Assembly: GCF_056712565.1 (NCBI RefSeq)
Contig: NZ_CM160072.1
Direction: 5' to 3' (one strand)
DNA: 64,000 bases
The notes under the pieces are model-generated. The model worked only from the letters and a program-made list of their open reading frames with translations. It was not told the origin of the DNA and did no database searches. Every line of letters begins with the position of its first letter. Position 1 is the first letter of the stretch. Of this stretch, positions 2,784-33,796 are shown piece by piece. Both the position numbers and the translations under genes were made by a program.

Positions 2784-4405
<1,622 letters not shown>

Positions 4406-5239: not shown

Positions 5240-6490
5240 ATGGAAAGTAAAGTAGTTGTTCCGGCACAAGGCAAGAAGATCACCCTGCAAAACGGCAAAC
5301 TCAACGTTCCTGAAAATCCGATTATCCCTTACATTGAAGGTGATGGAATCGGTGTAGATGTAACCCCAGCCATGCTGAAAGTGGTCGACGCTGCAGTTGA
5401 GAAAGCCTATAAAGGCGAGCGTAAAATCTCCTGGATGGAAATTTACACCGGTGAAAAATCCACACAGGTTTATGGTCAGGACGTCTGGTTGCCTGCTGAA
5501 ACCCTTGATCTGATTCGTGAATATCGCGTTGCCATTAAAGGCCCGCTGACCACTCCGGTTGGTGGCGGTATTCGCTCTCTGAACGTTGCCCTGCGCCAGG
5601 AACTGGATCTCTACATCTGCCTGCGTCCGGTACGTTACTATCAGGGCACTCCAAGCCCGGTTAAACACCCTGAACTGACCGATATGGTTATCTTCCGTGA
5701 AAACTCGGAAGACATTTATGCGGGTATCGAATGGAAAGCAGACTCTGCCGACGCTGAGAAAGTGATTAAATTCCTGCGTGAAGAGATGGGCGTGAAGAAA
5801 ATTCGCTTCCCGGAACATTGCGGTATCGGTATTAAGCCGTGTTCGGAAGAAGGCACCAAACGTCTGGTTCGTGCAGCGATCGAATACGCAATTGCTAACG
5901 ATCGTGACTCTGTGACCCTGGTGCACAAAGGCAACATCATGAAGTTCACCGAAGGCGCGTTTAAAGACTGGGGCTACCAACTGGCGCGTGAAGAATTTGG
6001 CGGTGAACTGATCGACGGCGGCCCGTGGCTGAAAGTTAAAAACCCGAATACCGGCAAAGAGATCGTCATTAAAGACGTGATTGCTGATGCATTCCTGCAA
6101 CAGATCCTGCTGCGTCCGGCTGAATATGATGTTATCGCCTGTATGAACCTGAACGGTGACTACATTTCTGACGCCCTGGCAGCGCAGGTTGGTGGTATCG
6201 GTATCGCCCCTGGCGCAAACATCGGTGACGAATGCGCCCTGTTTGAAGCCACCCACGGTACTGCGCCGAAATATGCCGGACAGGACAAAGTAAACCCAGG
6301 CTCTATTATTCTCTCCGCTGAGATGATGCTGCGCCATATGGGTTGGACTGAAGCGGCTGACCTGATTGTTAAAGGTATGGAAGGCGCAATCAATGCCAAG
6401 ACCGTAACCTATGACTTCGAACGTCTGATGGAAGGCGCTAAACTGCTGAAATGTTCAGAGTTTGGTGACGCGATCATCAAGAATATGTAA
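5240..6490 (+). CDS. icd: Isocitrate dehydrogenase (NADP); 3' ~165 bp is the prophage-adjacent copy of the att duplication
   Basis: 416 aa [41 protein letters not shown]...; classic Icd. Confidence 0.95.
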
Positions 6491-6541
6491 TCACTACATG
6501 TGTTAAATATTGAAACGGGCGTATAACACGCCCGTTGTTTT
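6327..6541. repeat. Left copy of the icd 3'-end direct repeat (attL side of prophage)
   Basis: About 215 bp here are repeated with a few mismatches at 53750..53966, including the icd stop codon and terminator hairpin. Confidence 0.85.
6513..6541 (+). terminator. icd rho-independent terminator
   Basis: Hairpin AAACGGGCGTATAACACGCCCGTT followed by GTTTT, 22 bp after the icd stop. Confidence 0.75.
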
Positions 6542-6557
6542 ATGATGATGTAAAATC

Positions 6558-6593
6558 TTCCCCAAAACTTTCCCCAAAACCCTTCCCCAAAAC
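6558..6593. repeat. Three tandem TTCCCCAAAAC repeats, candidate integrase arm-type binding sites
   Basis: TTCCCCAAAAC occurs three times with ~12 bp period between icd terminator and int; one further copy at 53621..53631. Confidence 0.5.
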
Positions 6594-6603
6594 TGGCTAT
6601 TTT

Positions 6604-7746
6604 CTATGCTGTTTTGATATCTACGATAATCCAGTCTTTACCACGATCATCATTGTATCGGTCGGTCATTTTTCTGGATTTATGGCCTAACAACTTTTGC
6701 GTATCCAGACCCTGTTCCCGATATAACCGTTCTGACAGAGATCGCTGCTCATGAAATGTGGGCGCAGTTCCTTGCTCCCATTTTATGCCACATTTTTCCC
6801 GGGCCTTTTTAAAAGCCGTTGTCAGAGTATTCGCAGAAACCTGGTCTCCTCTGTTTGCTTGAGAGGTAGTGTGACGGTAATGGACCAGATATTTACTAAC
6901 AACAGCATCCCTGCACTGAGATATAACTTCACGAAGGGTAATATTCAGAGCATCGCATTTCAGGTTAAGCGGAATAGCAAGTTTTGAACCGGTTTTTTCC
7001 TGAGTAATGTGCAACATGTCGTCCCATATATCAGAGAATTTCAAATTGCAGATATCGCCTAAACGTTGTCCAGTAACAAGAGCAAGTAGCATGCCGCATT
7101 TTAAATAGGGCTGCCGTCTGCTTACGCTGTCAAATATTGCCTGCCATTCGGGCAGTGACAATCTTTGGCGGTTTACTCGATTTCGTGGTTGTTTTGTTGC
7201 CTGCGCTGGGTTAAATCCTGGCGGAACATGTCCTGCGTGTTGTGCTTCTTTGAAGACGTCGATCAACACCATTCTCACGACTTGCGCCATCCTGTTATGA
7301 CCTTCAGCCTTTACAGCATCAATTATTTCGGCAATATCAAGTGCGGTAATATCCTTGAGGTGTTGCATTCCACAATGCTCACGGAAAAGACGAATGGGTT
7401 TGCCTTTTTGCCGATAGGAGTTGGGTCTTAGTTCATTATGTTGCAGCCTGTCCTCTTGGATAGAAATATATTTATCAAGCCATTCTGTCACCGTAATGTC
7501 TGAGCGCCTGCCTTTCATTCTTTCCAGACGCTCATTGACGCTTAATATTTGTCTGGTACGTTGTTCAGCAATAATGGTATTTGCTTCAGTAGCAACTTGT
7601 TTTGCTTCATTCTCATCAGTTCCTAAGCTATGAAAACGACCGGATAGTGGATGTTTGTATTGCCAATATACCTTTCCGGTTCGCTTATCTAATTTGCAAT
7701 ATAAATTGGGTATAGAGATTTTGTGAGATCGGGGTCTAGCAGCCAT
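6604..7746 (-). CDS. int: Phage integrase (tyrosine recombinase)
   Basis: 380 aa ORF directly beside the att repeat; C-terminal R..HxxR..Y-type catalytic region (LGHKSRKMTDRY); lambda-like int-xis arrangement. Confidence 0.88.
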   Translation of the reverse strand: MAARPRSHKISIPNLYCKLDKRTGKVYWQYKHPLSGRFHSLGTDENEAKQVATEANTIIAEQRTRQILSVNERLERMKGRRSDITVTEWLDKYISIQEDRLQHNELRPNSYRQKGKPIRLFREHCGMQHLKDITALDIAEIIDAVKAEGHNRMAQVVRMVLIDVFKEAQHAGHVPPGFNPAQATKQPRNRVNRQRLSLPEWQAIFDSVSRRQPYLKCGMLLALVTGQRLGDICNLKFSDIWDDMLHITQEKTGSKLAIPLNLKCDALNITLREVISQCRDAVVSKYLVHYRHTTSQANRGDQVSANTLTTAFKKAREKCGIKWEQGTAPTFHEQRSLSERLYREQGLDTQKLLGHKSRKMTDRYNDDRGKDWIIVDIKTA

Positions 7747-7972
7747 CAGCGATTATCCTTTGGAGTTTTGGGTTTGCGTTTATTGGGAGTTGCGGTTCTG
7801 CAAGCGTTCCTACAAAACGGGAATTTCGGTCAATCATCCAGTAGCGACCAACTTTTATAGCGGGTGGGGCCATCATTTTCCCTTGCGCGTATTTTTTCAG
7901 AACTCGCTCACTTGGTGCTAAGTCCCCAAATTCTTCTTTAGCCCAGTCCTGTAAAGTGATTAGTCGAGACAT
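7736..7972 (-). CDS. xis: Excisionase
   Basis: 78 aa ORF overlapping int start; MSRLITLQDWAKEEFG... resembles lambda-family Xis. Confidence 0.75.
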   Translation of the reverse strand: MSRLITLQDWAKEEFGDLAPSERVLKKYAQGKMMAPPAIKVGRYWMIDRNSRFVGTLAEPQLPINANPKLQRIIADGC

Positions 7973-8111
7973 TTGTCCTCCTCTTAGCTGCTGAGGGAGT
8001 TTGTGACCGATATATCTGACATGATATTAAGCTCATGGCAGGTACATCTCTTGACTGGTCATAGAGATAAATTTAATGCTGAGAAATGCAGTATTGAATT
8101 TATCAATTTTT

Positions 8112-8351
8112 CTATTTCCTGCGCATGTCACGTAACTTCTTAATGTGTTCTGCCGTTTCGATCTCTTCTGCTATCCGATCTGCATCAGCTTTATTCACAG
8201 GTTCAAAGTCATGATTAAAGCGGAACATGCTGGCGATACATGTTCTGCCTTTTCGGATGTAGTGAACTTTGTTGTGGGTAGAACGCAGGATTTTGCAGGG
8301 AGTGCCGTGGTGGTCGACGTACCAGGTGTTAGGGTCAATCACTCTGAACAT
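8112..8351 (-). CDS. Hypothetical phage early protein
   Basis: 79 aa ORF in the leftward early operon; no recognised domain. Confidence 0.4.
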   Translation of the reverse strand: MFRVIDPNTWYVDHHGTPCKILRSTHNKVHYIRKGRTCIASMFRFNHDFEPVNKADADRIAEEIETAEHIKKLRDMRRK

Positions 8352-8664
8352 TCTTGACCTTGTGTTGTGCGGATTGATATTCAGTGCTGATATTCACCTT
8401 TATAGCGAACACCTTTACCGGTTTATCGCCAAAGTGCGGATGTGTGATTGTCTTCACTTCATATCCGTCATACGGAACATCAATTCTGCGACTGGAATCG
8501 TCGCGCTTCGGATATCCCTTTGTGATAATCAGGCGGTCATATTCCCGGAACATAATTCGCTTATTCCAGTAGTCATTACACAAGCGATACTCTTCCGTTT
8601 TCTCTCCGCGAATCATGGCATCGAAGTATTCACTTTTAACAGCAAGTTGCAGGTTAGCCATCAC
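8335..8664 (-). CDS. Hypothetical protein, possibly ASCH/PUA-like
   Basis: 109 aa ORF MMANLQLAVKSEYFDAMIRGEKTEEYR...; pattern resembles ASCH domain proteins; assignment tentative. Confidence 0.45.
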   Translation of the reverse strand: MMANLQLAVKSEYFDAMIRGEKTEEYRLCNDYWNKRIMFREYDRLIITKGYPKRDDSSRRIDVPYDGYEVKTITHPHFGDKPVKVFAIKVNISTEYQSAQHKVKNVQSD

Positions 8665-8882
8665 TTAATCCCCCTTTGTTTGCGGATAAGCTCCAGATCT
8701 TGCTGGCAACTGGCGCAAGTCCGACAACCCTGAACGGCCAGGCGTCTTCGTTCATCTATCGGATCGCCACACTCACAACAATGAGTGGCAGATACAGCCA
8801 GGTAGTTCAGGCGGCGCATTTTTATTGCTGTGTTGCGCTGTAATTCTTCTATTTCTGATGCTGAATCAATGATGTCTGCCAT
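8661..8882 (-). CDS. TraR/DksA-family C4 zinc-finger protein
   Basis: 73 aa ORF with CxxC-n17-CxxC (CCECGDPIDERRRLAVQGCRTCASC), typical of phage TraR-like proteins. Confidence 0.7.
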   Translation of the reverse strand: MADIIDSASEIEELQRNTAIKMRRLNYLAVSATHCCECGDPIDERRRLAVQGCRTCASCQQDLELIRKQRGIK

Positions 8883-9268
8883 CTTTCATTAATCCCTGAA
8901 CTGTTGGTTAATACGCTTGAGGGTGAATGCGAACAATAAAAAAGGAGCCTGTAGCTCCCTGATAATTTTGCTTTTCATGTTCATCGTTCCTTAAAGACGC
9001 CGTTTAACATGCCGATTGCCAGGCTTAAATGAGTCGGTGTGAATCCCTTCAGCGTTACCGTTTCGCGGTGCTTCTTCAGTACGCTACGGCAAATGTCATT
9101 GACGTTTTTGGAAACTGCTGTCTGACTTTTTTGATTTCAGAATTAGCCTGACGGGCAATGCTGCGAAGGGCGTTTTCTTGCTGAGGTGTCACTGAACAAG
9201 CCCCATGTCGGCAAGCATAAGCACACAGAATATGAAGCCCGCTGCCAGAAAAATGCATTCAGTGGTTG

Positions 9269-9460
9269 TCATACCTGGTCTCTCTCATCTGCTTCTGCTT
9301 TCGCCACCATCATTTCCAGCTTTTGTGAAAGGGATGTGGCTAACGTATGAAATTCTTCGTCTGTTTCTGCTGGTATTGGCACAAACCTGACTCCAATTTG
9401 AGCAAGGCTATGTGCCAAATCAATACTCGTTCTTAACTCAACAGGAGATGCTTTGTGCAT
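9269..9460 (-). CDS. Hypothetical small phage protein
   Basis: 63 aa ORF in early-left operon; no recognised domain. Confidence 0.3.
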   Translation of the reverse strand: MHKASPVELRTSIDLAHSLAQIGVRFVPIPAETDEEFHTLATSLSQKLEMMVAKAEADERDQV

Positions 9461-9621
9461 ACCGCCCCCCGTTTATTATTTATCTCCTCAGCCAGCCGCT
9501 GGGCTTTCAGCGGATTTCGGATAACAGAAAGACCGTGAAATACCCAGCCTCGCTTTGTAACGGAGTAGACGAAAGTGATCGCGCCTACCCGGATATTATC
9601 GTGAGGATGGGTCATCGCCAT
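9433..9621 (-). CDS. Hypothetical small phage protein
   Basis: 62 aa ORF immediately upstream of exo, overlapping its neighbour. Confidence 0.3.
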
Positions 9622-10292
9622 TGCTCTCCAAATACAAAACCAATTTCAGCCAGTGCTTCGTCCATTTTTTCGATGAACTCCGGCACCATCTCGTCAAAAC
9701 TCGCCATGTACTTTTCATCCCGCTCAACCACGACATAATGCAGGCCTTCACGCTTCATTCGTGGGTCATAGTTGGCAAAGTACCAGGCATCTTTTCGTGT
9801 CACCCACATGCTGTACTGCACCTGGGCCATGTAAGCCGACTTTATGGCCTCGAAACCACCGAGCCGGAACTTCATGAAATCCCGGGAGGTAAACGGGCAT
9901 TTCAGCTCAAGGCCATTGCCGTCACTGCATAAACCATCGGGAGAGCAGGCGGTGCGCATACTTTCGTCGCGATAGATGATCGGGGATTCAGTAACATTCA
10001 CGCCGGAAGTGAATTCAAACAGGGTTCTGGCGTCGTTCTCGTACTGTTTTCCCCACGCCAGCGCCTTAGCATTAACTTCCGGAGCCACACCGGTGCAAAC
10101 CTCAGCCAGCAGGGTGTGGAAGTAGGACATTTTCATGTCAGGCCACTTCTTTCCTGAGCGGGGCTTTGCTATCACGTTGTGAACTTCTGAAGCGGTGATG
10201 ACGCCGAGCCGTAATTTGTGCCATGCATCATCCCCCTGTTCGACAGCTCTCACGTCGATCCCGGTACGCTGCAGGATAATGTCCGGTGTCAT
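9612..10292 (-). CDS. exo: Lambda exonuclease (Red alpha)
   Basis: 226 aa; [54 protein letters not shown]... which I recognise as essentially identical to lambda Exo. Confidence 0.95.
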
Positions 10293-11074
10293 GCTGCCAC
10301 CTTCTGCTCAGTGGCTTTCTGTTTCAGGAATCCAAGAGCTTTCACTGCTTCGGCCTGTGTCAGTTCTGACGATGCGCGAATGTCGCGGCGAAATATCTGG
10401 GAACAGAGCGGCAATAAGTCGTCATCCCATGTTTTGTCCAGGGCAATCAGCAGAGTGTTAATCTCCTGCATGGTTTCATCGTTAACCGGAGTGATGTCGC
10501 GTTCCGGCTGACGTTCTGCAGTGTATGCGGTATTTTCGACAATGCGCTCGGCTTCATCCTTGTCATAGATACCAGCAAATCCGAAGGCCAGACGGGCACA
10601 CTGAATCATGGCTTTATGCCGTAACATCCGTTTGGGATGCGACTGCCACGGCCCCGTGATTTCTCTGCCTTCGCGGGTTTTGAATGGTTCGCGGCGGCAT
10701 TCATCCATCCACTCGGTAACGCAGATCGGATGATTGCGGTCTTTGCGGTAAATCCGGCATGTACATGATTCATTGTCCTGCTCAAAGTCCATACCATCAA
10801 ACTGCTGGTTTTCATTGATGATGCGGGACCAGCCATCAACGCCCACCACCGGAACAATGCCGTTCTGCTTATCAGGGAAGGCGTAAATTTCTTTCGTCCA
10901 CGGATTAAGGCCGTACTGGTTGGCGACGATCAACAATGCGATGAACTGCGCATCGCTGGCATCACCTTTAAATGCCGTCTGGCGAAGAGTGGTGATCAGT
11001 TCCTGTGGGTCGACAGAATCCATGCCGACACGTTCAGCCAGCTTCCCTGCCAGCGTTGCGAGTGCTGTACTCAT
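10289..11074 (-). CDS. bet: Recombinase Bet (Red beta)
   Basis: 261 aa; [89 protein letters not shown]... Confidence 0.95.
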
Positions 11075-11079
11075 CCGTT

Positions 11080-11376
11080 TTATACCTCTGAATCAATATC
11101 AGCCTGATGGTGAGCAATGGTTTCAACTATGTACCGGATGTGTTCTGCCATGCGCTCCTGAAACTCAACATCGTCATCAAACGCACGGGTAATGGCTTTT
11201 TTGCTGGCCCCGTGGCGTTGTAAATGATCGATGCATAGCGATTCAAACAGGTGCTGGGGCAGGCCTTTTTCCATGTCGTCTGCCAGTTCTGCCTCTTTCT
11301 CTTCACGGGCGATCTGCTGGTAGTGACGCGCCCAGCTCTGAGCCTCAAGACGATCCTGAATGTAATAAGCGTTCAT
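11080..11376 (-). CDS. gam: RecBCD inhibitor Gam (short form)
   Basis: 98 aa; [56 protein letters not shown]... Confidence 0.93.
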
Positions 11377-11451
11377 GGCTGAACTCCTGAAAATGGCTGT
11401 GAAAATATCGCCCGCGAAATGCCAGGCTGATTAGGAAAACAGGAAAGGGGG

Positions 11452-11595
11452 TTAGTGAATGCTTTTGCTTGATCTCAGTTTCAGTATTAATATCCATTTT
11501 TTATAAGCGTCGACGGCCTCACGAAACATCTTTTCATCGCCAATAAAAGTGGCGATAGTGAATTTAGTCTGGATAGCCATAATTGTTTGATCCAT
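11452..11595 (-). CDS. kil: Host-killing protein Kil
   Basis: 47 aa [47 protein letters not shown] within the 89 aa tracked ORF; overlaps cIII as in lambda. Confidence 0.85.
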
Positions 11596-11728
11596 TTTTT
11601 GGGACTCCTGGCTGATTAAGTATGTCGATAAGGCGTTTCCATCCGTCACGTAATTTACGGGTGATTCGTTCAAGTAAAGATTCGGAAGGGCAGCCAGCAA
11701 CAGGCCACCCTGCAATGGCATATTGCAT
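11564..11728 (-). CDS. cIII: Anti-FtsH regulator CIII
   Basis: Hand translation gives [54 protein letters not shown] (54 aa); below the 60 aa ORF-track cutoff. Confidence 0.85.
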   Translation of the reverse strand: MQYAIAGWPVAGCPSESLLERITRKLRDGWKRLIDILNQPGVPKNGSNNYGYPD

Positions 11729-11800
11729 GGTGTGCTCCTTATTTATACATAACGAAAAACGCCTCGAGTGAAGCGTAATTGGTATGCGGTAACGCCGCGC

Positions 11801-12169
11801 TCAGGCGGCCTTGATAGTCATATCATCTGAATCAAATATTCCTGATGTATCGATATCGGTAATTCTTATTCCTTCACTACCATCCATTGGAGGCCATCCT
11901 TCCTGACCATTTCCATCATTCCAGTCGAACTCACACACAACACCATATGCATTTAAGTCGCTTGAAATTGCTATAAGCAGAGCATGTTGCGCCAGCATGA
12001 TTAATACAGCATTTAATACAGAGCCGTGTTTATTGAGTCGGTATTCAGAGTCTGACCAGAAATTATTAATCTGGTGAAGTTTTTCCTCTGTCATTACGTC
12101 ATGGTCAATTTCAATTTCTATTGATGCTTTCCAGTCGTAATCAATGATGTATTTTTTGATGTTTGACAT
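11801..12169 (-). CDS. ea10: Lambda Ea10-like protein
   Basis: 122 aa ORF in the lambda ea10 position; I recall this sequence as lambda Ea10. Confidence 0.8.
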   Translation of the reverse strand: MSNIKKYIIDYDWKASIEIEIDHDVMTEEKLHQINNFWSDSEYRLNKHGSVLNAVLIMLAQHALLIAISSDLNAYGVVCEFDWNDGNGQEGWPPMDGSEGIRITDIDTSGIFDSDDMTIKAA

Positions 12170-12351
12170 CTATTCATATCCTCATAGATAAAAAATCGCC
12201 CTCACACTGGAGGGCAAAGAAGATTTCCAATAATCAGAACAAGTCGGCTCCTGTTTAGTTACGAGCGACATTGCTCCGTGTATTCACTCGTTGGAATGAA
12301 TACACAGTGCAGTGTTTATTCTGTTATTTATGCCAAAAATAAAGGCCACTA

Positions 12352-12552
12352 TCAGGCAGCTTTGTTGTTCTGTTTACCAAGTTCTCTGGCAATCATTGCC
12401 GTCGTTCGTATTGCCCATTTATCGACATATTTCCCATCTTCCATTACAGGAAACATTTCTTCAGGCTTAACCATGCATTCCGATTGCAGCTTGCATCCAT
12501 TGCATCGTTTGAATTGTCCACACCATTGATTTGTATCAATAGTCGTAGTCAT
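12352..12552 (-). CDS. ral: Restriction alleviation protein Ral
   Basis: 66 aa; MTTTIDTNQWCGQFKRCNGCKLQSECMVKPEEMFPVMEDGKYVDKWAIRTTAMIARELGKQNNKAA. Confidence 0.92.
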   Translation of the reverse strand: MTTTIDTNQWCGQFKRCNGCKLQSECMVKPEEMFPVMEDGKYVDKWAIRTTAMIARELGKQNNKAA

Positions 12553-12765
12553 ACGGATAGTCCTGGTATTGTTCCATCACATCTTGAGGATGCTCTTCGA
12601 ACTCTTCAAATTCTTCTTCCATATATCACCTTAAATAGTGGATTGCGGTAGTAAAGATTGTGCCTGTCTTTTAACCACATCAGGCTCGGTGGTTCTCGTG
12701 TACCCCTACAACGAGAAATCGGATAAACTCTATTCACCCCTACAGAGAGCAAAAGAGAAACGCCG

Positions 12766-13347
12766 ATGAACAACTCATGGTGGCAGGAACTAATGCATTT
12801 TTTCCTGCAAGGAATGACACTTAAACAGTTGATTCATATGCTAATCATCCTGATCATATTGATTATTGTTATGCCGGTAAGCGTAAAAGAATGGATAAAC
12901 CTGCATAATCCAGAAATCCTTCCTCATTACTGGATGTATTACATCCTGTTGTTTTGCGTTAGCTATGTGCTTAACGGCGTTGTTAATTCCGCTTATCACG
13001 CTGTGACTGAAAGAATTGAGGTATTCGCTGCTCAGAAGCGCAAATCTAAAGAAGAAAAATATGTGCAAGATTTGTTTGATTCGTTAACTCTTGGAGAAAG
13101 AGCGTATTTGGCATTCGCTGTAGCCGCTAATAACCAGCTACAAACGGAAAAGGGCGCTCATGAATCAATTTCATTGCTCAAAAAAGGACTCCTCGTTCGA
13201 AGGCCTCCTGCTGTTGGATATCCTGATACCGACCGTTTCGTTATCCCTGAAAGCTATAGACATGAGTGCTACATTAGGTTTGCCGGGAAGGCAGACAGCC
13301 TTATGGATGAACTTATCGCTCAGGATAAGCATGGCAAAAACAAGTAA
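12766..13347 (+). CDS. sieB: Superinfection exclusion protein B
   Basis: 193 aa membrane protein (LIHMLIILIILIIVMPV) in the lambda sieB position and orientation. Confidence 0.85.
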   Translation: MNNSWWQELMHFFLQGMTLKQLIHMLIILIILIIVMPVSVKEWINLHNPEILPHYWMYYILLFCVSYVLNGVVNSAYHAVTERIEVFAAQKRKSKEEKYVQDLFDSLTLGERAYLAFAVAANNQLQTEKGAHESISLLKKGLLVRRPPAVGYPDTDRFVIPESYRHECYIRFAGKADSLMDELIAQDKHGKNK

Positions 13348-13363
13348 TTAGCAAATGAATTTA

Positions 13364-13636
13364 TCATCTCGCCGTCAGTTGTTTTGATTTCCGGTAGCCT
13401 GCCGCGTAAAGAGCTACGTTCGGAAGACAAGTTGAACCTTCATATTTTCTGGTCAACGTTGTCAGAGTTATCACTTCTGCTCTCATTGCTGGTTTGAGCT
13501 TGCATTGCAAGACCACTCGTGAAGGGGTTGGCCTGTGTAGCTTGTCGGAGCTGATCGCCTCCTGACTTTGCAGATTTGCGCGACGAGCTCTACGGCGAGA
13601 AGCTGCGGTGCCTTTAAATTCTGTTTTTCTGGACAT
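13364..13636 (-). CDS. N: N-like transcription antiterminator
   Basis: Start chosen at MSRKTEFKGTAASRRRARRANLQSQEA (arginine-rich motif near N-terminus); lies just downstream of nutL on the leftward transcript. Confidence 0.7.
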   Translation of the reverse strand: MSRKTEFKGTAASRRRARRANLQSQEAISSDKLHRPTPSRVVLQCKLKPAMRAEVITLTTLTRKYEGSTCLPNVALYAAGYRKSKQLTAR

Positions 13637-13733
13637 GGATTCCTCCCGAATAAACTTTGGCGATGCAATCTCGAAGCTCCTCCTGAGACGGTTGCTTCGG
13701 CATTGCATCCCACAGCTTATGTGGTTGGGTGAT

Positions 13734-13779
13734 CTGGCTTTTCAGCCACGTAGTCGAGAGTCGACGTTGTTTAAAGAGC
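13734..13779 (-). promoter_or_regulatory. nutL (boxA GCUCUUUAAACAACG and boxB hairpin GGCUGAAAAGCC)
   Basis: Reverse complement of 13765..13779 matches boxA consensus; 13734..13745 forms a GAAA-loop hairpin resembling the nutR boxB of this phage. Confidence 0.6.
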
Positions 13780-14040
13780 CTGCCAGTCTGTTCCATTTGG
13801 CTTCCAGCGTCCTGCTGACGGTTAAATAGTACGATATGTACTTTACAAGATCAATACAATTTGTTGTAAGTTGGCGTGGTTTTTTATAACGCTTTGTATT
13901 TAATAGTGTTGTTTTTTAGCGTGGATGTATTGCCTCGGCGATGTAAGGAGAGATCAGAATTGCGTGGTTTAGTGGGTTGCATCTATTTATTTTTCAATAA
14001 ATATAATTGGTTATGTGTTTTTAGGTGGGCGAACGTGAGG

Positions 14041-27152: not shown

Positions 27153-29052
27153 TGCAGCCGGTGCGATAGCTACAGGGCTTTTATCTCTCATTATTCCTGT
27201 TCCACTGACGACAGTTCAGTGGGCCAATAAACATTATTACCTTCCTAAAGAGTCGTCTTATACCCCGGGGCGATGGGAAACACTGCCGTTTCAGGTTGGC
27301 ATCATGAACTGTATGGGCAACGATCTGATTCGCACGGTTAACCTGATTAAATCTGCCCGTGTTGGTTATACAAAGATGTTGCTGGGAGTGGAGGCTTATT
27401 TTATTGAGCATAAATCACGCAACAGCCTTCTTTTTCAGCCCACGGACTCAGCTGCTGAAGATTTTATGAAATCTCATGTTGAGCCAACGATAAGGGATGT
27501 TCCTGCATTGCTGGAGCTGGCTCCATGGTTCGGAAGAAAACACCGCGATAATACGCTCACCCTGAAGCGTTTTTCCTCCGGTGTGGGGTTCTGGTGTCTG
27601 GGTGGTGCGGCAGCAAAAAACTACCGTGAAAAATCCGTGGATGTGGTCTGTTATGACGAGCTTTCCTCGTTCGAACCGGATGTTGAAAAAGAGGGTTCGC
27701 CAACCCTGCTGGGGGATAAACGTATTGAGGGCTCTGTATGGCCAAAATCCATTCGCGGCTCGACGCCTAAAATCAAAGGCTCCTGCCAGATCGAAAAAGC
27801 CGCTAACGAGTCGGCACACTTCATGCGTTTTTATGTGCCCTGTCCGCACTGTGGGGAGGAGCAGTATCTGAAATTTGGCGATGATGCCTCGCCTTTCGGT
27901 CTTAAGTGGGAGAAGAATAAGCCAGAAAGTGTTTTCTACCTTTGTGAGCATCATGGCTGTGTGATCCATCAGTCTGAGCTTGACCAGAGTAACGGGCGGT
28001 GGATCTGTGAAAACACGGGCATGTGGACTCGTGACGGTCTGACATTTTTCAGCGCCGCGGATAATGAAATTCCGCCGCCGCGCTCCATCACTTTCCATAT
28101 CTGGACGGCGTACAGTCCGTTCACCACCTGGGTACAGATTGTCTATGACTGGCTGGATGCACTGAAAGATCCCAACGGCCTGAAAACCTTTGTGAACACC
28201 ACGCTGGGCGAGACCTGGGAAGAGGCTGTGGGCGAAAAACTCGATCACCAGGTGCTGATGGATAAGGTTGTGCGTTACACGGCGGCGGTGCCTGCCCGGG
28301 TGGTTTATCTGACGGCGGGCATTGACTCGCAGCGAAACCGTTTTGAGATGTATGTCTGGGGATGGGCTCCGGGAGAGGAAGCCTTTCTGGTGGATAAAAT
28401 CATCATTATGGGGCGTCCCGATGAGGAAGAGACGCTGTTACGTGTGGATGCGGCGATCAACAAAAAATACCGCCATGCAGACGGAACCGAAATGACCATT
28501 TCCCGTGTCTGCTGGGACATCGGGGGGATCGATGGCGAAATCGTTTATCAGAGGTCAAAAAAACACGGTGTTTTCCGGGTGCTGCCGGTAAAAGGCGCAT
28601 CTGTCTATGGCAAGCCGGTGATCACCATGCCAAAAACCCGCAATCAGCGGGGCGTGTATCTGTGTGAAGTGGGGACGGACACCGCAAAAGAAATTCTCTA
28701 TGCCCGTATGAAAGCCGATCCCACGCCTGTGGATGAAGCCACGTCGTATGCTATCCGTTTTCCTGATGATCCGGAGATTTTTTCGCAGACAGAGGCGCAG
28801 CAACTGGTCGCGGAAGAGCTTGTGGAGAAGTGGGAAAAAGGAAAGATGCGTCTGCTGTGGGATAACAAAAAGCGGCGTAACGAAGCGCTGGACTGCCTGG
28901 TGTATGCCTACGCGGCATTACGTGTGTCCGTGCAACGCTGGCAGCTTGATCTGGCTGTACTGGCAAAATCCCGGGAAGAAGAGACGACCCGGCCAACCCT
29001 TAAAGAACTGGCAGCGAAGCTGTCCGGAGGAGTGAATGGTTACAGTCGCTGA
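27124..29052 (+). CDS. A: Terminase large subunit A
   Basis: 642 aa from [10 protein letters not shown]...; long lambda gpA-like stretches ([41 protein letters not shown]). Confidence 0.93.
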
Positions 29053-29242
29053 ACTGCAGGCGCTGCGTCAGGCGCGCCTTGATTTATTAACCGGTAAACG
29101 GGTGGTGTCTGTCCAGAAAGATGGTCGCAGAATTGAATATACGGCGGCTTCTCTGGATGAGCTTAACCGGGCGATCAATGATGCGGAGTCGGTACTGGGG
29201 ACAACCCGGTGTCGCCGTCGTCCGCTGGGAGTGAGGTTATGA
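29036..29242 (+). CDS. W: Head-tail joining protein W
   Basis: 68 aa; ...LLTGKRVVSVQKDGRRIEYTAASLDEL... matches lambda gpW. Confidence 0.88.
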   Translation: MVTVAELQALRQARLDLLTGKRVVSVQKDGRRIEYTAASLDELNRAINDAESVLGTTRCRRRPLGVRL

Positions 29243-30831
29243 AACGAACGCCTGTCCTGATTGATGTGAACGGCGTTCCGCTTCGTGAGAGTCTCAGCTA
29301 CAACGGGGGCGGTGCAGGATTTGGCGGGCAAATGGCTGAGTGGTTGCCACCGGCGCAGAGTGCCGATGCGGCCCTGCTGCCCGCGTTGCGTCTGGGGAAT
29401 GCCCGGGCAGATGATCTGGTGCGCAATAACGGAATAGCGGCTAATGCGGTGGCTCTGCATAAGGATCACATTGTCGGGCATATGTTTCTGATTAGCTACC
29501 GTCCGAACTGGCGCTGGCTGGGGATGCGGGAGACCGCAGCAAAAAGCTTTGTCGATGAGGTGGAGGCGGCCTGGTCGGAATACGCCGAAGGGATGTTTGG
29601 CGAGATCGACGTGGAAGGAAAACGCACGTTCACGGAATTTATCCGTGAAGGTGTGGGCGTTCATGCGTTTAACGGCGAAATCTTTGTGCAGCCGGTCTGG
29701 GATACGGAGAGTACGCAACTGTTTCGTACGCGTTTTAAAGCCGTGAGTCCGAAACGGGTGGACACGCCAGGACACGGTATCGGGAACCGTTTTCTGCGGG
29801 CCGGTGTGGAGGTTGATCGATATGGCCGTGCCGTCGCGTACCATATCTGTGAGGATGATTTTCCGTTCTCTGGTAGTGGACGATGGGAACGGATCCCGCG
29901 TGAACTTCCCACCGGGCGTCCGGCCATGCTGCATATTTTCGAGCCGGTGGAGGACGGGCAGACCCGTGGGGCTAATCAGTTTTACAGCGTTATGGAACGG
30001 CTGAAGATGCTCGATTCCCTGCAGGCAACACAGCTTCAGTCGGCCATAGTGAAGGCGATGTATGCAGCGACGATTGAAAGTGAACTTGATACCGAAAAGG
30101 CCTTTGAATATATCGCCGGCGCGCCACAGGAGCAGAAGGATAATCCGCTTATTAATATTCTGGAGAAGTTTTCCAGCTGGTATGACACGAATAGCGTGAC
30201 GCTGGGCGGTGTCAAAATTCCGCACCTTTTCCCTGGTGATGATCTGAAACTACAGACTGCGCAGGATTCAGACAATGGATTTTCTGCGCTTGAACAGGCG
30301 CTGCTGCGGTATATCGCCGCCGGTCTTGGCGTTTCCTACGAACAGTTGTCCCGTGATTACTCGAAGGTCAGTTACTCAAGTGCCCGCGCCTCCGCCAATG
30401 AGTCGTGGCGCTATTTTATGGGGCGGCGAAAATTTATTGCGGCCCGGCTGGCCACGCAGATGTTTTCCTGCTGGCTGGAAGAGGCACTTCTTCGGGGGAT
30501 TATTCGTCCGCCACGGGCACGTTTTGATTTTTATCAGGCGCGATCAGCCTGGTCACGGGCAGAGTGGATTGGTGCCGGAAGAATGGCCATTGACGGGCTC
30601 AAGGAAGTCCAGGAATCAGTGATGCGCATTGAGGCCGGACTGAGCACGTATGAGAAAGAGCTGGCGCTGATGGGCGAGGATTATCAGGACATTTTCCGCC
30701 AGCAGGTCAGGGAATCTGCTGAGCGGCAAAAAGCCGGACTCTCACGTCCGGTGTGGATAGAGCAGGCGTATCAGCAGCAGATAGCGGAGAGTCGCAGGCC
30801 GGAAGAGGAGACAACACCACGTGAGACGTAA
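29239..30831 (+). CDS. B: Portal protein B
   Basis: 530 aa from MKRTPVLIDVNGVPLRESLSYNGGGAGFGGQMAEW (lambda gpB-like). Confidence 0.92.
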   Translation: MKRTPVLIDVNGVPLRESLSYNGGGAGFGGQMAEWLPPAQSADAALLPALRLGNARADDLVRNNGIAANAVALHKDHIVGHMFLISYRPNWRWLGMRETAAKSFVDEVEAAWSEYAEGMFGEIDVEGKRTFTEFIREGVGVHAFNGEIFVQPVWDTESTQLFRTRFKAVSPKRVDTPGHGIGNRFLRAGVEVDRYGRAVAYHICEDDFPFSGSGRWERIPRELPTGRPAMLHIFEPVEDGQTRGANQFYSVMERLKMLDSLQATQLQSAIVKAMYAATIESELDTEKAFEYIAGAPQEQKDNPLINILEKFSSWYDTNSVTLGGVKIPHLFPGDDLKLQTAQDSDNGFSALEQALLRYIAAGLGVSYEQLSRDYSKVSYSSARASANESWRYFMGRRKFIAARLATQMFSCWLEEALLRGIIRPPRARFDFYQARSAWSRAEWIGAGRMAIDGLKEVQESVMRIEAGLSTYEKELALMGEDYQDIFRQQVRESAERQKAGLSRPVWIEQAYQQQIAESRRPEEETTPRET

Positions 30832-32326
30832 TCTTTCACACATTATTGCCGCAGCATTCAATGAACCGCTGCTTCTGGAGCCCGCCTATGCGCGGGTTTT
30901 CTTTTGCGCGCTCGGGCGCGAGATGGGGGCAGCAAGTCTTTCGGTACCACAACAGCAGGTACAGTTTGATGCTCCCGGAATGCTGGCTGAAACGGACGAG
31001 TACATGGCCGGAGGTAAACGACCGGCCCGTGTTTACCGGGTGGTGAACGGTATTGCTGTACTGCCGGTGACCGGCACGCTGGTGCACCGGCTGGGTGGTA
31101 TGCGGCCATTTTCCGGAATGACAGGCTATGACGGCATTGTCGCCTGTCTTCAGCAGGCAATGGCGGATAGCCAGGTGCGGGGCGTACTGCTGGACATTGA
31201 CAGTCCGGGCGGGCAGGCCGCCGGCGCGTTTGACTGCGCTGACATGATTTACCGCCTCCGTCAGCAGAAGCCGGTCTGGGCACTGTGCAATGACACGGCC
31301 TGTTCTGCAGCCATGCTGCTGGCGTCGGCCTGCTCCCGACGGCTGGTTACCCAGACATCCCGTATCGGCTCCATTGGCGTGATGATGAGCCATGTCAGCT
31401 ATGCCGGTCATCTGGCGCAGGCCGGTGTGGATATCACGCTGATTTACTCAGGGGCGCACAAGGTGGATGGCAATCAGTTTGAAGCGTTGCCGGCAGAGGT
31501 TCGCCAGGACATGCAGCAGCGGATTGATGCGGCGCGCCGGATGTTTGCCGAAAAAGTGGCGATGTATACCGGTCTGTCTGTTGATGCCGTCACGGGAACA
31601 GAGGCTGCCGTTTTTGAAGGTCAGTCCGGCATTGAGGCCGGGCTGGCGGATGAATTAATCAATGCGTCGGATGCCATCAGTGTGATGGCCACGGCGCTGA
31701 ACAGTAATGTCAGAGGAGGCACTATGCCGCAATTAACTGCAACGGAAGCCGCCGCGCAGGAGAACCAGCGAGTGATGGGGATCCTGACATGCCAGGAAGC
31801 GAAAGGACGTGAACAGCTTGCCACGATGCTGGCAGGACAACAGGGCATGAGCGTTGAACAGGCCCGGGCGATTCTGGCCGCGGCGGCACCGCAGCAGCCG
31901 GTGGCATCCACGCAGAGTGAAGCCGATCGCATTATGGTGTGTGAAGAAGCGAACGGTCGTGAACAACTGGCGGCAACGCTGGCGGCGATGCCGGAGATGA
32001 CGGTGGAAAAAGCCCGCCCGATCCTGGCGGCTGCACCACTGGCGGATGCCGGACCATCACTCCGTGATCAGATCATGGCCCTGGATGAGGCAAAAGGGGC
32101 TGAGGCGCAGGCTGAACAGCTGGCTGCCTGCCCGGGAATGACAGTGGAGAGCGCCCGGGCTGTGCTGGCTGCGGGATCAGGTAAGGCAGAACCGGTCTCT
32201 GCATCCACAACCGCCATGTTTGAACATTTCATGGCGAACCATTCACCGGCAGCGGTACAGGGTGGCGTGGCACAGACGTCAGCAGACGGTGATGCGGACG
32301 TGAAAATGCTCATGGCCATGCCATGA
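30821..32326 (+). CDS. C: Capsid assembly protease C (S49 family) with in-frame scaffold (Nu3) region
   Basis: 501 aa; N-terminus AAFNEPLLLEPAYARVFFCAL and S49 core match lambda gpC; C-terminal part carries three tandem ~45 aa repeats. Confidence 0.88.
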   Translation: MRRNLSHIIAAAFNEPLLLEPAYARVFFCALGREMGAASLSVPQQQVQFDAPGMLAETDEYMAGGKRPARVYRVVNGIAVLPVTGTLVHRLGGMRPFSGMTGYDGIVACLQQAMADSQVRGVLLDIDSPGGQAAGAFDCADMIYRLRQQKPVWALCNDTACSAAMLLASACSRRLVTQTSRIGSIGVMMSHVSYAGHLAQAGVDITLIYSGAHKVDGNQFEALPAEVRQDMQQRIDAARRMFAEKVAMYTGLSVDAVTGTEAAVFEGQSGIEAGLADELINASDAISVMATALNSNVRGGTMPQLTATEAAAQENQRVMGILTCQEAKGREQLATMLAGQQGMSVEQARAILAAAAPQQPVASTQSEADRIMVCEEANGREQLAATLAAMPEMTVEKARPILAAAPLADAGPSLRDQIMALDEAKGAEAQAEQLAACPGMTVESARAVLAAGSGKAEPVSASTTAMFEHFMANHSPAAVQGGVAQTSADGDADVKMLMAMP

Positions 32327-32362
32327 AGTCAGTGCTGACCATCAATAGGAGGTTTTTACAAT

Positions 32363-32710
32363 ATGGTGACGAAAACCATCACTGAACAGCGTGCGGAAGT
32401 ACGTATTTTTGCCGGTAATGATCCGGCTCATACCGCCACAGGCAGCAGCGGGATTTCCTCGCCAACACCGGCACTGACGCCCCTGATGCTGGATGAAGCC
32501 ACCGGGAAACTGGTGGTCTGGGACGGACAGAAAGCCGGTAGTGCGGTTGGCATACTGGTACTGCCGCTTGAAGGCACAGAGACGGCGCTGACGTATTACA
32601 AGTCGGGAACCTTTGCGACGGAGGCAATCCACTGGCCTGAAAGTGTGGATGAACACAAAAAGGCCAACGCCTTTGCTGGCAGTGCCCTGAGTCACGCGGC
32701 GCTGCCGTAA
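32363..32710 (+). CDS. D: Head decoration protein D
   Basis: 115 aa; GNDPAHTATGSSG...TPLMLDEATGKLVVWDG...AVGILV...YYKSGTF matches lambda gpD. Confidence 0.92.
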   Translation: MVTKTITEQRAEVRIFAGNDPAHTATGSSGISSPTPALTPLMLDEATGKLVVWDGQKAGSAVGILVLPLEGTETALTYYKSGTFATEAIHWPESVDEHKKANAFAGSALSHAALP

Positions 32711-32767
32711 CACGTTATCAGGCCACCGCGGTGGCCTGACTGATTTCTGAATGAAAGGAACTGATTT

Positions 32768-33796
32768 ATGGGATTGTTTACGACCCGCCAGTTACTCGGT
32801 TATACCGAACAAAAAGTTAAATTTCGTGCGCTGTTTCTGGAGCTGTTTTTCCGCCGTACGGTGAATTTCCATACCGAAGAGGTGATGCTGGACAAAATTA
32901 CCGGAAAAACGCCGGTGGCGGCCTATGTCTCCCCGGTTGTTGAAGGAAAAGTGCTGCGTCATCGTGGTGGTGAAACCCGCGTGTTGCGTCCGGGCTACGT
33001 CAAGCCGAAACACGAATTTAATTACCAGCAGGCGGTTGAGCGCCTTCCTGGTGAAGATCCATCTCAACTGAATGATCCGGCTTACCGCCGTCTGCGTATC
33101 ATTACCGATAACCTCAAACAGGAAGAGCACGCGATTGTCCAGGTGGAAGAAATGCAGGCGGTAAATGCTGTGTTGTATGGCAAATACACCATGGAAGGAG
33201 ACCAGTTCGAGAAAATTGAGGTCGATTTTGGCAGGTCGACGAAGAATAACATCACTCAGGGTAGTGGTAAGGAGTGGTCAAAACAGGATCGTGACACGTT
33301 CGATCCTACACATGATATTGACCTCTACTGCGACCTGGCCAGCGGTCTTGTGAATATTGCCATTATGGACGGTACCGTCTGGCGTCTTCTGAATGGCTTT
33401 AAGCTGTTCCGCGAAAAACTGGATACCCGTCGCGGTTCAAATTCTCAACTCGAAACGGCAGTGAAAGATCTGGGCGCAGTGGTGTCCTTCAAGGGGTATT
33501 ACGGCGATCTGGCCATTGTGGTGGCGAAAACGTCTTATATAGCAGAAGACGGTACCGAAAAACGTTATCTTCCAGATGGCATGCTGGTTCTGGGGAATAC
33601 TGCTGCAGATGGGATCCGTTGTTACGGTGCCATTCAGGATGCTCAGGCGTTGTCCGAAGGTGTGGTGGCCTCTTCCCGTTATCCGAAACACTGGCTGACG
33701 GTAGGGGATCCCGCCCGTGAATTTACCATGACGCAGTCCGCGCCGCTGATGGTGTTGCCGGACCCGGATGAGTTTGTGGTGGTACAGGTGAAATAA
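32768..33796 (+). CDS. E: Major capsid protein E
   Basis: 342 aa; closely matches lambda gpE (PGYVKPKHE, QVEEMQAVNAVLYGKYTMEGD, TGDPAREFTMTQSAPLM). Confidence 0.95.
   Translation: MGLFTTRQLLGYTEQKVKFRALFLELFFRRTVNFHTEEVMLDKITGKTPVAAYVSPVVEGKVLRHRGGETRVLRPGYVKPKHEFNYQQAVERLPGEDPSQLNDPAYRRLRIITDNLKQEEHAIVQVEEMQAVNAVLYGKYTMEGDQFEKIEVDFGRSTKNNITQGSGKEWSKQDRDTFDPTHDIDLYCDLASGLVNIAIMDGTVWRLLNGFKLFREKLDTRRGSNSQLETAVKDLGAVVSFKGYYGDLAIVVAKTSYIAEDGTEKRYLPDGMLVLGNTAADGIRCYGAIQDAQALSEGVVASSRYPKHWLTVGDPAREFTMTQSAPLMVLPDPDEFVVVQVK

Follow-up and report, generated by a model that had tools for sequence, protein, structure and literature searches.

The stretch from 8112 to 9621 of contig NZ_CM160072.1, within the 64,000-nucleotide (nt) piece of DNA that was analyzed as a whole (the window), very probably corresponds to the exo-xis region in a lambdoid prophage of phage-21 type (genus Jouyvirus) that is inserted at the icd 3' end. 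In the map of open reading frames (ORFs), icd lay on the plus strand at 5240-6490 with the prophage genes int and xis directly beside it, and the order on the minus strand was int, xis, the cluster under study, exo, bet, gam, and kil/cIII. The downstream boundary was a phage-21-type xis (7736-7972, minus strand), whose product was identical to phage 21 Xis in 78 of 78 residues and matched the excisionase family PHROG 629 (5.4e-36). The upstream boundary was exo (9612-10292, minus strand), with 223 of 226 residues (99%) identical to lambda Exo and a match to Pfam YqaJ (4.3e-30). The int gene occupied 6604-7746 on the same strand. The DNA of 7700-9700 was 100%, 99.9%, and 97.3% identical to PhiR63_2, ev207, and phage 21, respectively, all of which are Jouyvirus or phage-21-like. 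Furthermore, the prophage showed 99.9% identity across 24.5 kb to Escherichia phage PhiR63_2, which was isolated as a virion. The identical 1.5 kb (100%) was present in many complete Escherichia coli genomes, among them those of NU14, APEC O18, and the type strain ATCC 11775, and some portion of it matched 3655 of 5426 genomes.

The exo-xis region (orf60a, orf63, orf61, orf73, and ea22) is transcribed early from pL and is non-essential (PMC8614690, PMC4195576, PMC3824215), and it has been studied for more than a decade. A preliminary description, made from the letters of this DNA, had placed a cluster of small genes between xis and exo and had regarded it as a non-essential accessory stretch of the early-left (pL) operon. 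The cluster was real, lay entirely on the minus strand and filled 8112-9621 exactly, and its accessory character was in agreement with the literature on the exo-xis region (PMC8614690, PMC3824215). Since the majority of its genes are almost the same as lambda genes that already carry names, the block is ordinary rather than new, being already known both as a concept and as an exact sequence.

The minus strand of the stretch carried six ORFs of at least 60 codons and one of 31 codons, rather than the five small ORFs counted at first. The boundaries were exact, with the last gene stopping at 8112 and the first able to start no further upstream than 9621. From exo towards xis, the genes were an orf60a ortholog (DUF1317; 60 amino acids (aa) from the ATG, 9433-9615, with the longest ORF reaching 9621 and 62 aa), an orf63 ortholog (DUF1382; 63 aa, 9269-9460), a frameshifted orf61 homolog (8981-9258, with an open frame of 60 aa at 9076-9258), a conserved 31-codon ORF between orf61 and orf73 (8889-8984), an orf73 ortholog for a TraR-family C4 zinc finger (73 aa, 8661-8882), a gene for a predicted divergent ASCH/PUA-like protein (108 aa, 8338-8661), and, last before xis, a gene for a DUF4222 protein of the RgdR family (79 aa, 8112-8351). 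All six ORFs of at least 60 codons matched curated families in Pfam or PHROG far beyond chance. The preliminary description had been able to classify only two, as a TraR/DksA-type zinc finger and a possible ASCH/PUA-like protein. Both calls were right, the former by Pfam and Protein Data Bank (PDB) matches and the latter by an AlphaFold2 (AF2) model and Foldseek, and the remaining ORFs could also be assigned, as orthologs of orf60a, orf63, and orf61 and as the DUF4222 protein.

The genes overlapped or abutted at most junctions: exo and orf60a met at ATGA, orf60a and orf63 overlapped by 28 nt, orf73 and the ASCH gene by 1 nt, and the ASCH and DUF4222 genes by 14 nt, while the stop of full-length orf61 was overlapped by the ATG of the 31-codon ORF. 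As read from the sequence, such packing is that of a block whose genes are co-transcribed and translationally coupled. The ratio of non-synonymous to synonymous changes per site (pN/pS) was obtained by comparing the window with phage 21, lambda, phi24B, and 4A7. Synonymous changes exceeded non-synonymous ones in 11 of the 13 small-gene comparisons (pN/pS 0.00-0.47); the exceptions were orf63 against lambda (1.93) and the DUF4222 gene against 4A7 (0.94), both with very few substitutions. The small genes thus appear to be coding but under weaker constraint than exo, because their ratios were higher than the 0.02-0.05 of exo. The lambda orthologs were found by listing the ORFs of lambda 27500-33500 (NC_001416) and then aligning them; orf73 (2893-3114 in the lambda locus, L003) and the 31-codon ORF are present in NC_001416 as ORFs without annotation.

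The genes nearest exo were the most easily recognized. The orf60a ortholog matched Pfam DUF1317 (8.5e-39) and was identical to lambda orf60a in 61 of 62 residues (98%), with pN/pS of 0.04-0.25; its RefSeq annotation is 183 nt long. The orf63 ortholog matched Pfam DUF1382 (9.1e-29) and shared 56 of 63 residues (89%) with lambda and 94% with phage 21. Its protein also matched PDB 8DSB (E 2.1e-31), the structure of lambda Orf63 solved by nuclear magnetic resonance (PMC10869804). The 31-codon ORF was identical to that of lambda in 31 of 31 residues, with two synonymous and no non-synonymous differences, and ribosome profiling in lambda has detected a 31-aa peptide gene in the exo-xis block (PMC8614690). 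Phenotypes of orf60a, orf61, orf63, and orf73 in the literature concern the lysis-lysogeny decision and the timing of induction rather than the evasion of defences (PMC8614690). Orf63 is a dimer of small, helical subunits, Orf60a is a small protein of beta-sheet type, and pro-lytic phenotypes have been published for both. Behind orf73, ea22 was not found; the ASCH gene came next, followed by the DUF4222 gene, and no Ea22-type match was obtained in the Pfam and PHROG scans of the cluster ORFs. Accordingly, the block is a variant without ea22.

Among the conserved genes, orf73 offered the clearest link to host physiology. Its product matched Pfam zf-dskA_traR (6.7e-9; 36.0 bits against a cutoff of 24.9), PHROG 54 "DksA-like zinc-finger protein" (2.5e-25), and the PDB entries of TraR, 5W1S/6N57 (E 1e-4), and scored 55.1 bits with NCBIfam TIGR02419, slightly under the cutoff of 59.7. 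It was identical to phage 21 Orf73 in 73 of 73 residues and to lambda Orf73 in 66 of 73 (90%). The translation contained an N-terminal DxxDxA motif, as defined for TraR and Orf73 (PMC9239242), in the form D3-I-I-D6-S-A8, and a zinc site C35xxC38-17-C56xxC59. In addition, R46/R47 aligned with the "ARRK" segment of TraR, which holds its arginine pair R48/R49, and the two extra cysteines typical of lambda Orf73 were also kept. Lambda Orf73, studied by Gopalkrishnan et al., binds RNA polymerase, inhibits rRNA and ribosomal-protein promoters, slows host growth, and raises the burst or phage yield about 4-fold (PMC9239242). A role of the window Orf73 as a host-takeover factor is therefore supported by analogy, the experiments being those on its close lambda ortholog; no other step in the action of the cluster has a mechanism demonstrated by direct experiment. 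The preliminary description had suspected functions in host takeover or anti-defence; the takeover part stood for Orf73 only (PMC9239242), and the anti-defence part found neither a match to PADLOC models nor a link in the literature. The ORFs did not all turn out to be confident homologs of housekeeping proteins with no host-interaction role, so the idea was not refuted, and it has already been explored for four of the genes.

The orf61 open frame matched PHROG 26061 (1.4e-32), and its match to PHROG 303 covered residues 1-54 of the 101-position profile; over the retained part it was 95% identical to lambda. In a four-way DNA alignment with translations, orf61 of phi24B and phage 21 encoded 93 aa. 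In lambda, an extra A in a run of A (A7 vs. A6) leads to a stop after 61 aa. The window kept A6 and had a 4-nt deletion (GGAT) 20 nt further on, between 9110 and 9109, which shifted the conserved C-terminal half into another frame and left a 60-aa product. As judged from the alignment, the truncations in the window and in lambda are independent events. Downstream of both frameshifts, the DNA remained almost 100% conserved. A homeodomain-like fold was predicted by Donaldson for Orf61 residues 24-93, and the window product should be non-functional because the lost C-terminal half lies within this region; orf61 would thus be inactivated by the frameshift. The locus is listed by RefSeq as a "frameshifted" pseudogene in ATCC 11775. 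With an 81-nt probe across the deletion and a match of at least 99%, the deletion allele was found in 117 of 2481 E. coli records carrying the segment, and sampled other records aligned with 85-86 bases against the 81-nt probe, which was consistent with the undeleted form. The RefSeq/PGAP label "cell division protein ZapA" for orf61 (locus L010, 3370-3581) was rejected: the window ORF scored 18.5 bits and even the full-length phi24B Orf61 only 16.0 bits with Pfam ZapA, against a cutoff of 23.8. In ev207 (NC_049949), a 40-codon plus-strand ORF antisense to orf61 (window 9029-9151) is annotated as hypothetical and the orf61 remnant is unannotated; the antisense ORF is probably an annotation artefact of the frameshift.

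Transcription signals were sought along the block. A terminator-like hairpin with a T-run was found by a consensus scan inside the 31-codon ORF (8942-8960, minus strand; fold -10.2 kcal/mol, z -2.96). Its stem equals that of "t2" in lambda and phi24B and was invariant in the four aligned phages. The terminators "t1" and "t2" and the promoter p1 were predicted by Bloch et al. 2014 (PMC4195576). In the "t1" hairpin inside orf60a (window 9515-9560, minus strand), there were two substitutions in the 3' arm (CCCGGCC to CACGGTC), one of which leads to P29H in Orf60a. Its stability was -8.8 kcal/mol compared with -17.6 in lambda, no better than that of shuffled sequences. The hairpin occupies the position of the classical lambda terminator tL3. 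Because the "t1" hairpin is weakened, more transcripts than in lambda may continue into the distal genes. The p1 promoter had one substitution in each hexamer in the window and was not counted as evidence. In a sigma-70 consensus scan, sites were no more numerous than in shuffled sequence, and the minus strand of the cluster had none. Rfam was searched by E-value over 6400-14000 and at the gathering threshold over the whole window; no family fell within the cluster, and no tRNA was found. The 139-nt gap that separates the end of the DUF4222 gene from the start of xis contained an imperfect, AT-rich inverted repeat of 16 pairs (8066-8104; -8.4 kcal/mol as RNA, z -2.0), which was flagged by the scan as a rightward terminator from the plus-strand T-run that follows it.

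The degraded tL3-type hairpin, together with an orf61 frameshifted here and independently in lambda and the dispensability of the region in the laboratory (PMC8614690), could be read as a sign that the small ORFs are decaying, functionless remnants hitch-hiking between essential recombination genes. However, the five remaining ORFs are unbroken members of large, conserved families, synonymous changes outnumber non-synonymous ones per site in most comparisons, and PhiR63_2, a phage obtained as a virion, matches the prophage at 99.9% identity. Moreover, deletion and over-expression phenotypes have been published for the lambda and phi24B orthologs. Decay of the whole block was accordingly held to be highly improbable.

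The product of 8338-8661 was accepted as a predicted divergent ASCH/PUA-like protein because of its AF2 model, the Foldseek matches to ASCH structures, and a GxKxxExR signature. It matched PHROG 625 (2.5e-51), and its Pfam ASCH score of 14.3 bits (E 0.068) was below the gathering threshold of 21.2; only 6 of 87 homologs reached E <= 0.01 with this model. No NCBIfam match was obtained, and PDB sequence searches with the single sequence and with an 87-sequence profile gave nothing significant, so the fold was recovered only by structure comparison. An exhaustive HMMER search gave 750 cluster representatives at E <= 1e-3. Residues 1-92 formed a conserved core, and the final 15 residues or so a lineage-specific, non-conserved tail. 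The AF2 model, built from the 87-sequence alignment, had a mean predicted local distance difference test (pLDDT) score of 88. It comprised strand E3-8, helix H10-17, and strand E23-27, so that the predicted beta-barrel has alpha1 between beta1 and beta2, as in the ASCH fold. The best PDB matches by Foldseek were ASCH structures, namely 3IUW (top, E 0.038), ZmASCH, and TTHA0113. The motif GxKxxExR is the ASCH signature in the alpha1-beta2 region (PMC6803910), and it was found there as G19, K21, E24, and R26; across the 87 homologs, K21 was invariant and the other three were at least 90% conserved. The protein would be a nucleotide- or RNA-binding PUA-like barrel, possibly hydrolytic. Its gene behaved as a presence/absence cassette, since the siblings 1H12 and 4A7 (loci L011 and L012) carried int, xis, the DUF4222 gene, and orf73 without it.

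It was considered very unlikely that the cluster, and in particular its ASCH and DUF4222 genes, serves as an anti-defence module that neutralizes host restriction or abortive-infection systems at an early stage of infection. The early-left position is shared with counter-defence genes, gam (11080-11376) and ral (annotated nearby in ev207), and patchy occurrence among sibling phages, as shown by the ASCH cassette, is frequent for "moron"-type accessory genes. Nevertheless, no match to PADLOC models was obtained at E <= 0.1 for the seven ORFs, a result that excludes a defence role only, because PADLOC covers defence and not anti-defence proteins. The literature on DUF4222, and on ASCH with phage, likewise gave no paper assigning an anti-restriction or anti-defence role to these families. 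For the conserved genes, the phenotypes in the literature relate to development and transcription, and the fold similarity is confined to a reader domain, with no effector.

The DUF4222 protein matched its Pfam family with 3.6e-19 (68.5 bits, gathering 27) and was found by tblastn in 128 phage records; in records that begin at the int end, it maps close to that end. In all seven phages with inspected annotation, it was the last or second-last gene before xis/int. The carriers included phi24B (vb_24B_1c, 37% identity, last before xis), phiP27, YYZ-2008, phi467, and a Klebsiella phage. In the Klebsiella phage ST13-OXA48phi12.5 (locus L005, 2283-2740), a TraR/DksA gene is directly followed by the DUF4222 gene beside int, with two genes for DNA methyltransferases a short way upstream; an adjacent TraR-DUF4222 pair thus recurs outside E. 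coli phages. An apparent TraR-DUF4222 fusion (P0356, 167 aa) was rejected as evidence of a functional link, being a read-through of orf73 into the DUF4222 frame in ASCH-less phages, with the start Met of DUF4222 kept. The AF2 structure model was made from an alignment of 33 sequences, whose diversity was drawn from phage loci, the second homolog search having listed close relatives only. It had a pLDDT of 89 and showed a small five-stranded barrel (residues 10-52) with a long C-terminal helix (54-78), a predicted SH3/Tudor-like barrel plus helix.

The sole characterized member of this family is RgdR, encoded as ECs1581 in the Sakai genome (Pfam DUF4222 2.1e-23, 82 bits). RgdR, from prophage Sp7 of enterohaemorrhagic E. 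coli (EHEC), is a pleiotropic regulator that activates LEE1 and the type III secretion system (T3SS), represses motility, and binds DNA weakly and without specificity (PMC3378721, PMC10877973). As in EHEC, the DUF4222 protein, and perhaps the ASCH protein, could be imagined to regulate motility, adhesion, or secretion from the resident prophage, as a lysogenic-conversion factor. In favor of this, RgdR itself is a prophage-encoded member of DUF4222 with such effects on LEE1/T3SS and motility (PMC3378721), and many extraintestinal pathogenic E. coli (ExPEC)/B2 genomes, including ATCC 11775, NU14, and APEC O18, carry the exact module, fixed at 100% identity. However, the window protein was only 24% identical to RgdR. 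The RGD tripeptide important for T3SS activation (PMC3378721) was replaced, the RgdR segment "MRGDIYRD" aligning with "DPNTWYVD" and RGD standing opposite PNT. Furthermore, pN/pS of the gene was not low (0.46-0.94, from small counts), and no promoter-like site was found upstream of it on its strand. Because the gene overlaps the preceding one, it would be expected to stay off as long as CI represses pL. Taken together, lysogenic conversion by this gene is unlikely.

In comparison with these alternatives, the reading as an exo-xis region leads to the following picture. By extension from lambda, the block would form the distal part of the N-antiterminated pL operon, with early transcription once infection or induction has begun. 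It would consist of a conserved part (orf60a-orf63-orf61-31-codon ORF-orf73), near base-for-base with lambda and Stx phages, and a variable part, the ASCH and DUF4222 genes beside xis. It would be dispensable for plaques and would tune host physiology, the choice between lysis and lysogeny, and the kinetics of induction. The N-terminal helix of the TraR-like Orf73, with its DxxDxA tip, would enter the secondary channel of RNA polymerase. Independently of guanosine tetraphosphate (ppGpp), the protein would shut down rRNA and ribosomal-protein promoters and leave resources to phage production. The DUF4222 protein might be an SH3/Tudor-like adaptor modulating transcription through protein-protein contacts, a pattern proposed for RgdR.

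CarD, Mfd, and the C-terminal domain of UvrD/PcrA dock on the beta subunit of RNA polymerase by the Tudor/SH3-like fold class. A more specific proposal is that the DUF4222 protein is such a polymerase-binding adaptor and forms with Orf73 a two-part module reprogramming host transcription, and that, separately, the ASCH protein could target a modified nucleotide or an RNA in the host; this was regarded as speculative and quite unlikely. If true, it would supply a mechanism for the EHEC virulence regulator RgdR.

Several points count against the reading of the block as an exo-xis region with these functions. The gene ea22, part of the conserved block in the literature definition (PMC8614690), is absent. 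The phenotypes of orf73 conflict, being pro-lysogenic in the assays of the Wegrzyn laboratory and an increased burst in those of Gopalkrishnan et al. The transcription of the block from pL is carried over from lambda. The DUF4222 protein is distant from RgdR and without its RGD motif, and its predicted SH3/Tudor-like fold is generic, saying little on a partner.

For annotation, four "hypothetical" ORFs can now be named (orf60a, orf63, the orf61 pseudogene, and the TraR-like orf73), the RefSeq label ZapA is unsupported, and the ASCH call is supported by fold and motif. The remaining interest lies in the ASCH and DUF4222 proteins, which recur beside xis in many lambdoid and Stx phages, the latter belonging to the family of RgdR, an EHEC virulence regulator.

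Further features were observed around the block and in a related prophage. The sole Rfam match in the 64-kb window was the lambda cIII thermoregulator RF01804 (11683-11741, minus strand, 88.5 bits). The icd site is also used by prophage Sp8 of E. coli O157:H7 Sakai (locus L013, 38293-50000), whose int (1143 nt) and xis (237 nt) are equal in size to those of the window. No exo-xis or other early-left genes were found in Sp8, where the replication genes come straight after xis; the whole block is thus deleted there.

Among the known systems closest to the block are those of phage 21 (OL657228), ev207, and PhiR63_2, which share its int/xis, the icd attachment site, gene content, and 97-100% of the DNA. 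The ASCH and Orf73 proteins of phage 21 were 100% identical to those of the window; phage 21 differed in its intact 93-aa orf61 and in a DUF4222 protein of 89% identity. In lambda and the Shiga toxin (Stx) phages phi24B and 933W, studied by the Wegrzyn and Donaldson laboratories, the exo-xis region has the same position and strand and shares the order orf60a-orf63-orf61-31-codon ORF-orf73, with lambda proteins 89-100% identical. The window lacked ea22, ea8.5, and orf55 of lambda and carried the ASCH and DUF4222 genes in that place. Orf73 shared with F-plasmid TraR and lambda Orf73 the DxxDxA tip, the CxxC-17-CxxC site, the arginine pair, and the C-terminal helix, and it had six cysteines as lambda Orf73 has; it differed from the latter by seven substitutions, including ELISK to ELIRK at the C-terminus. 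The predicted ASCH protein resembled E. faecalis 3IUW, ZmASCH, E. coli YqfB, and human EOLA1/TRIP4 in the barrel and the placement of alpha1, and the numbering of its GxKxxExR motif equals that of EOLA1. Its identity to known ASCH proteins was about 16-20%, its Pfam score was under the threshold, and its family adds the motifs H74-x-x-F77-G78 and GYP. Finally, like RgdR of the EHEC O157:H7 prophage Sp7/CP-933C, the DUF4222 protein is a small, prophage-encoded member of Pfam DUF4222, but it has 79 rather than 99 aa and lies in a lambdoid early-left context, whereas RgdR is found in a P4-like remnant.

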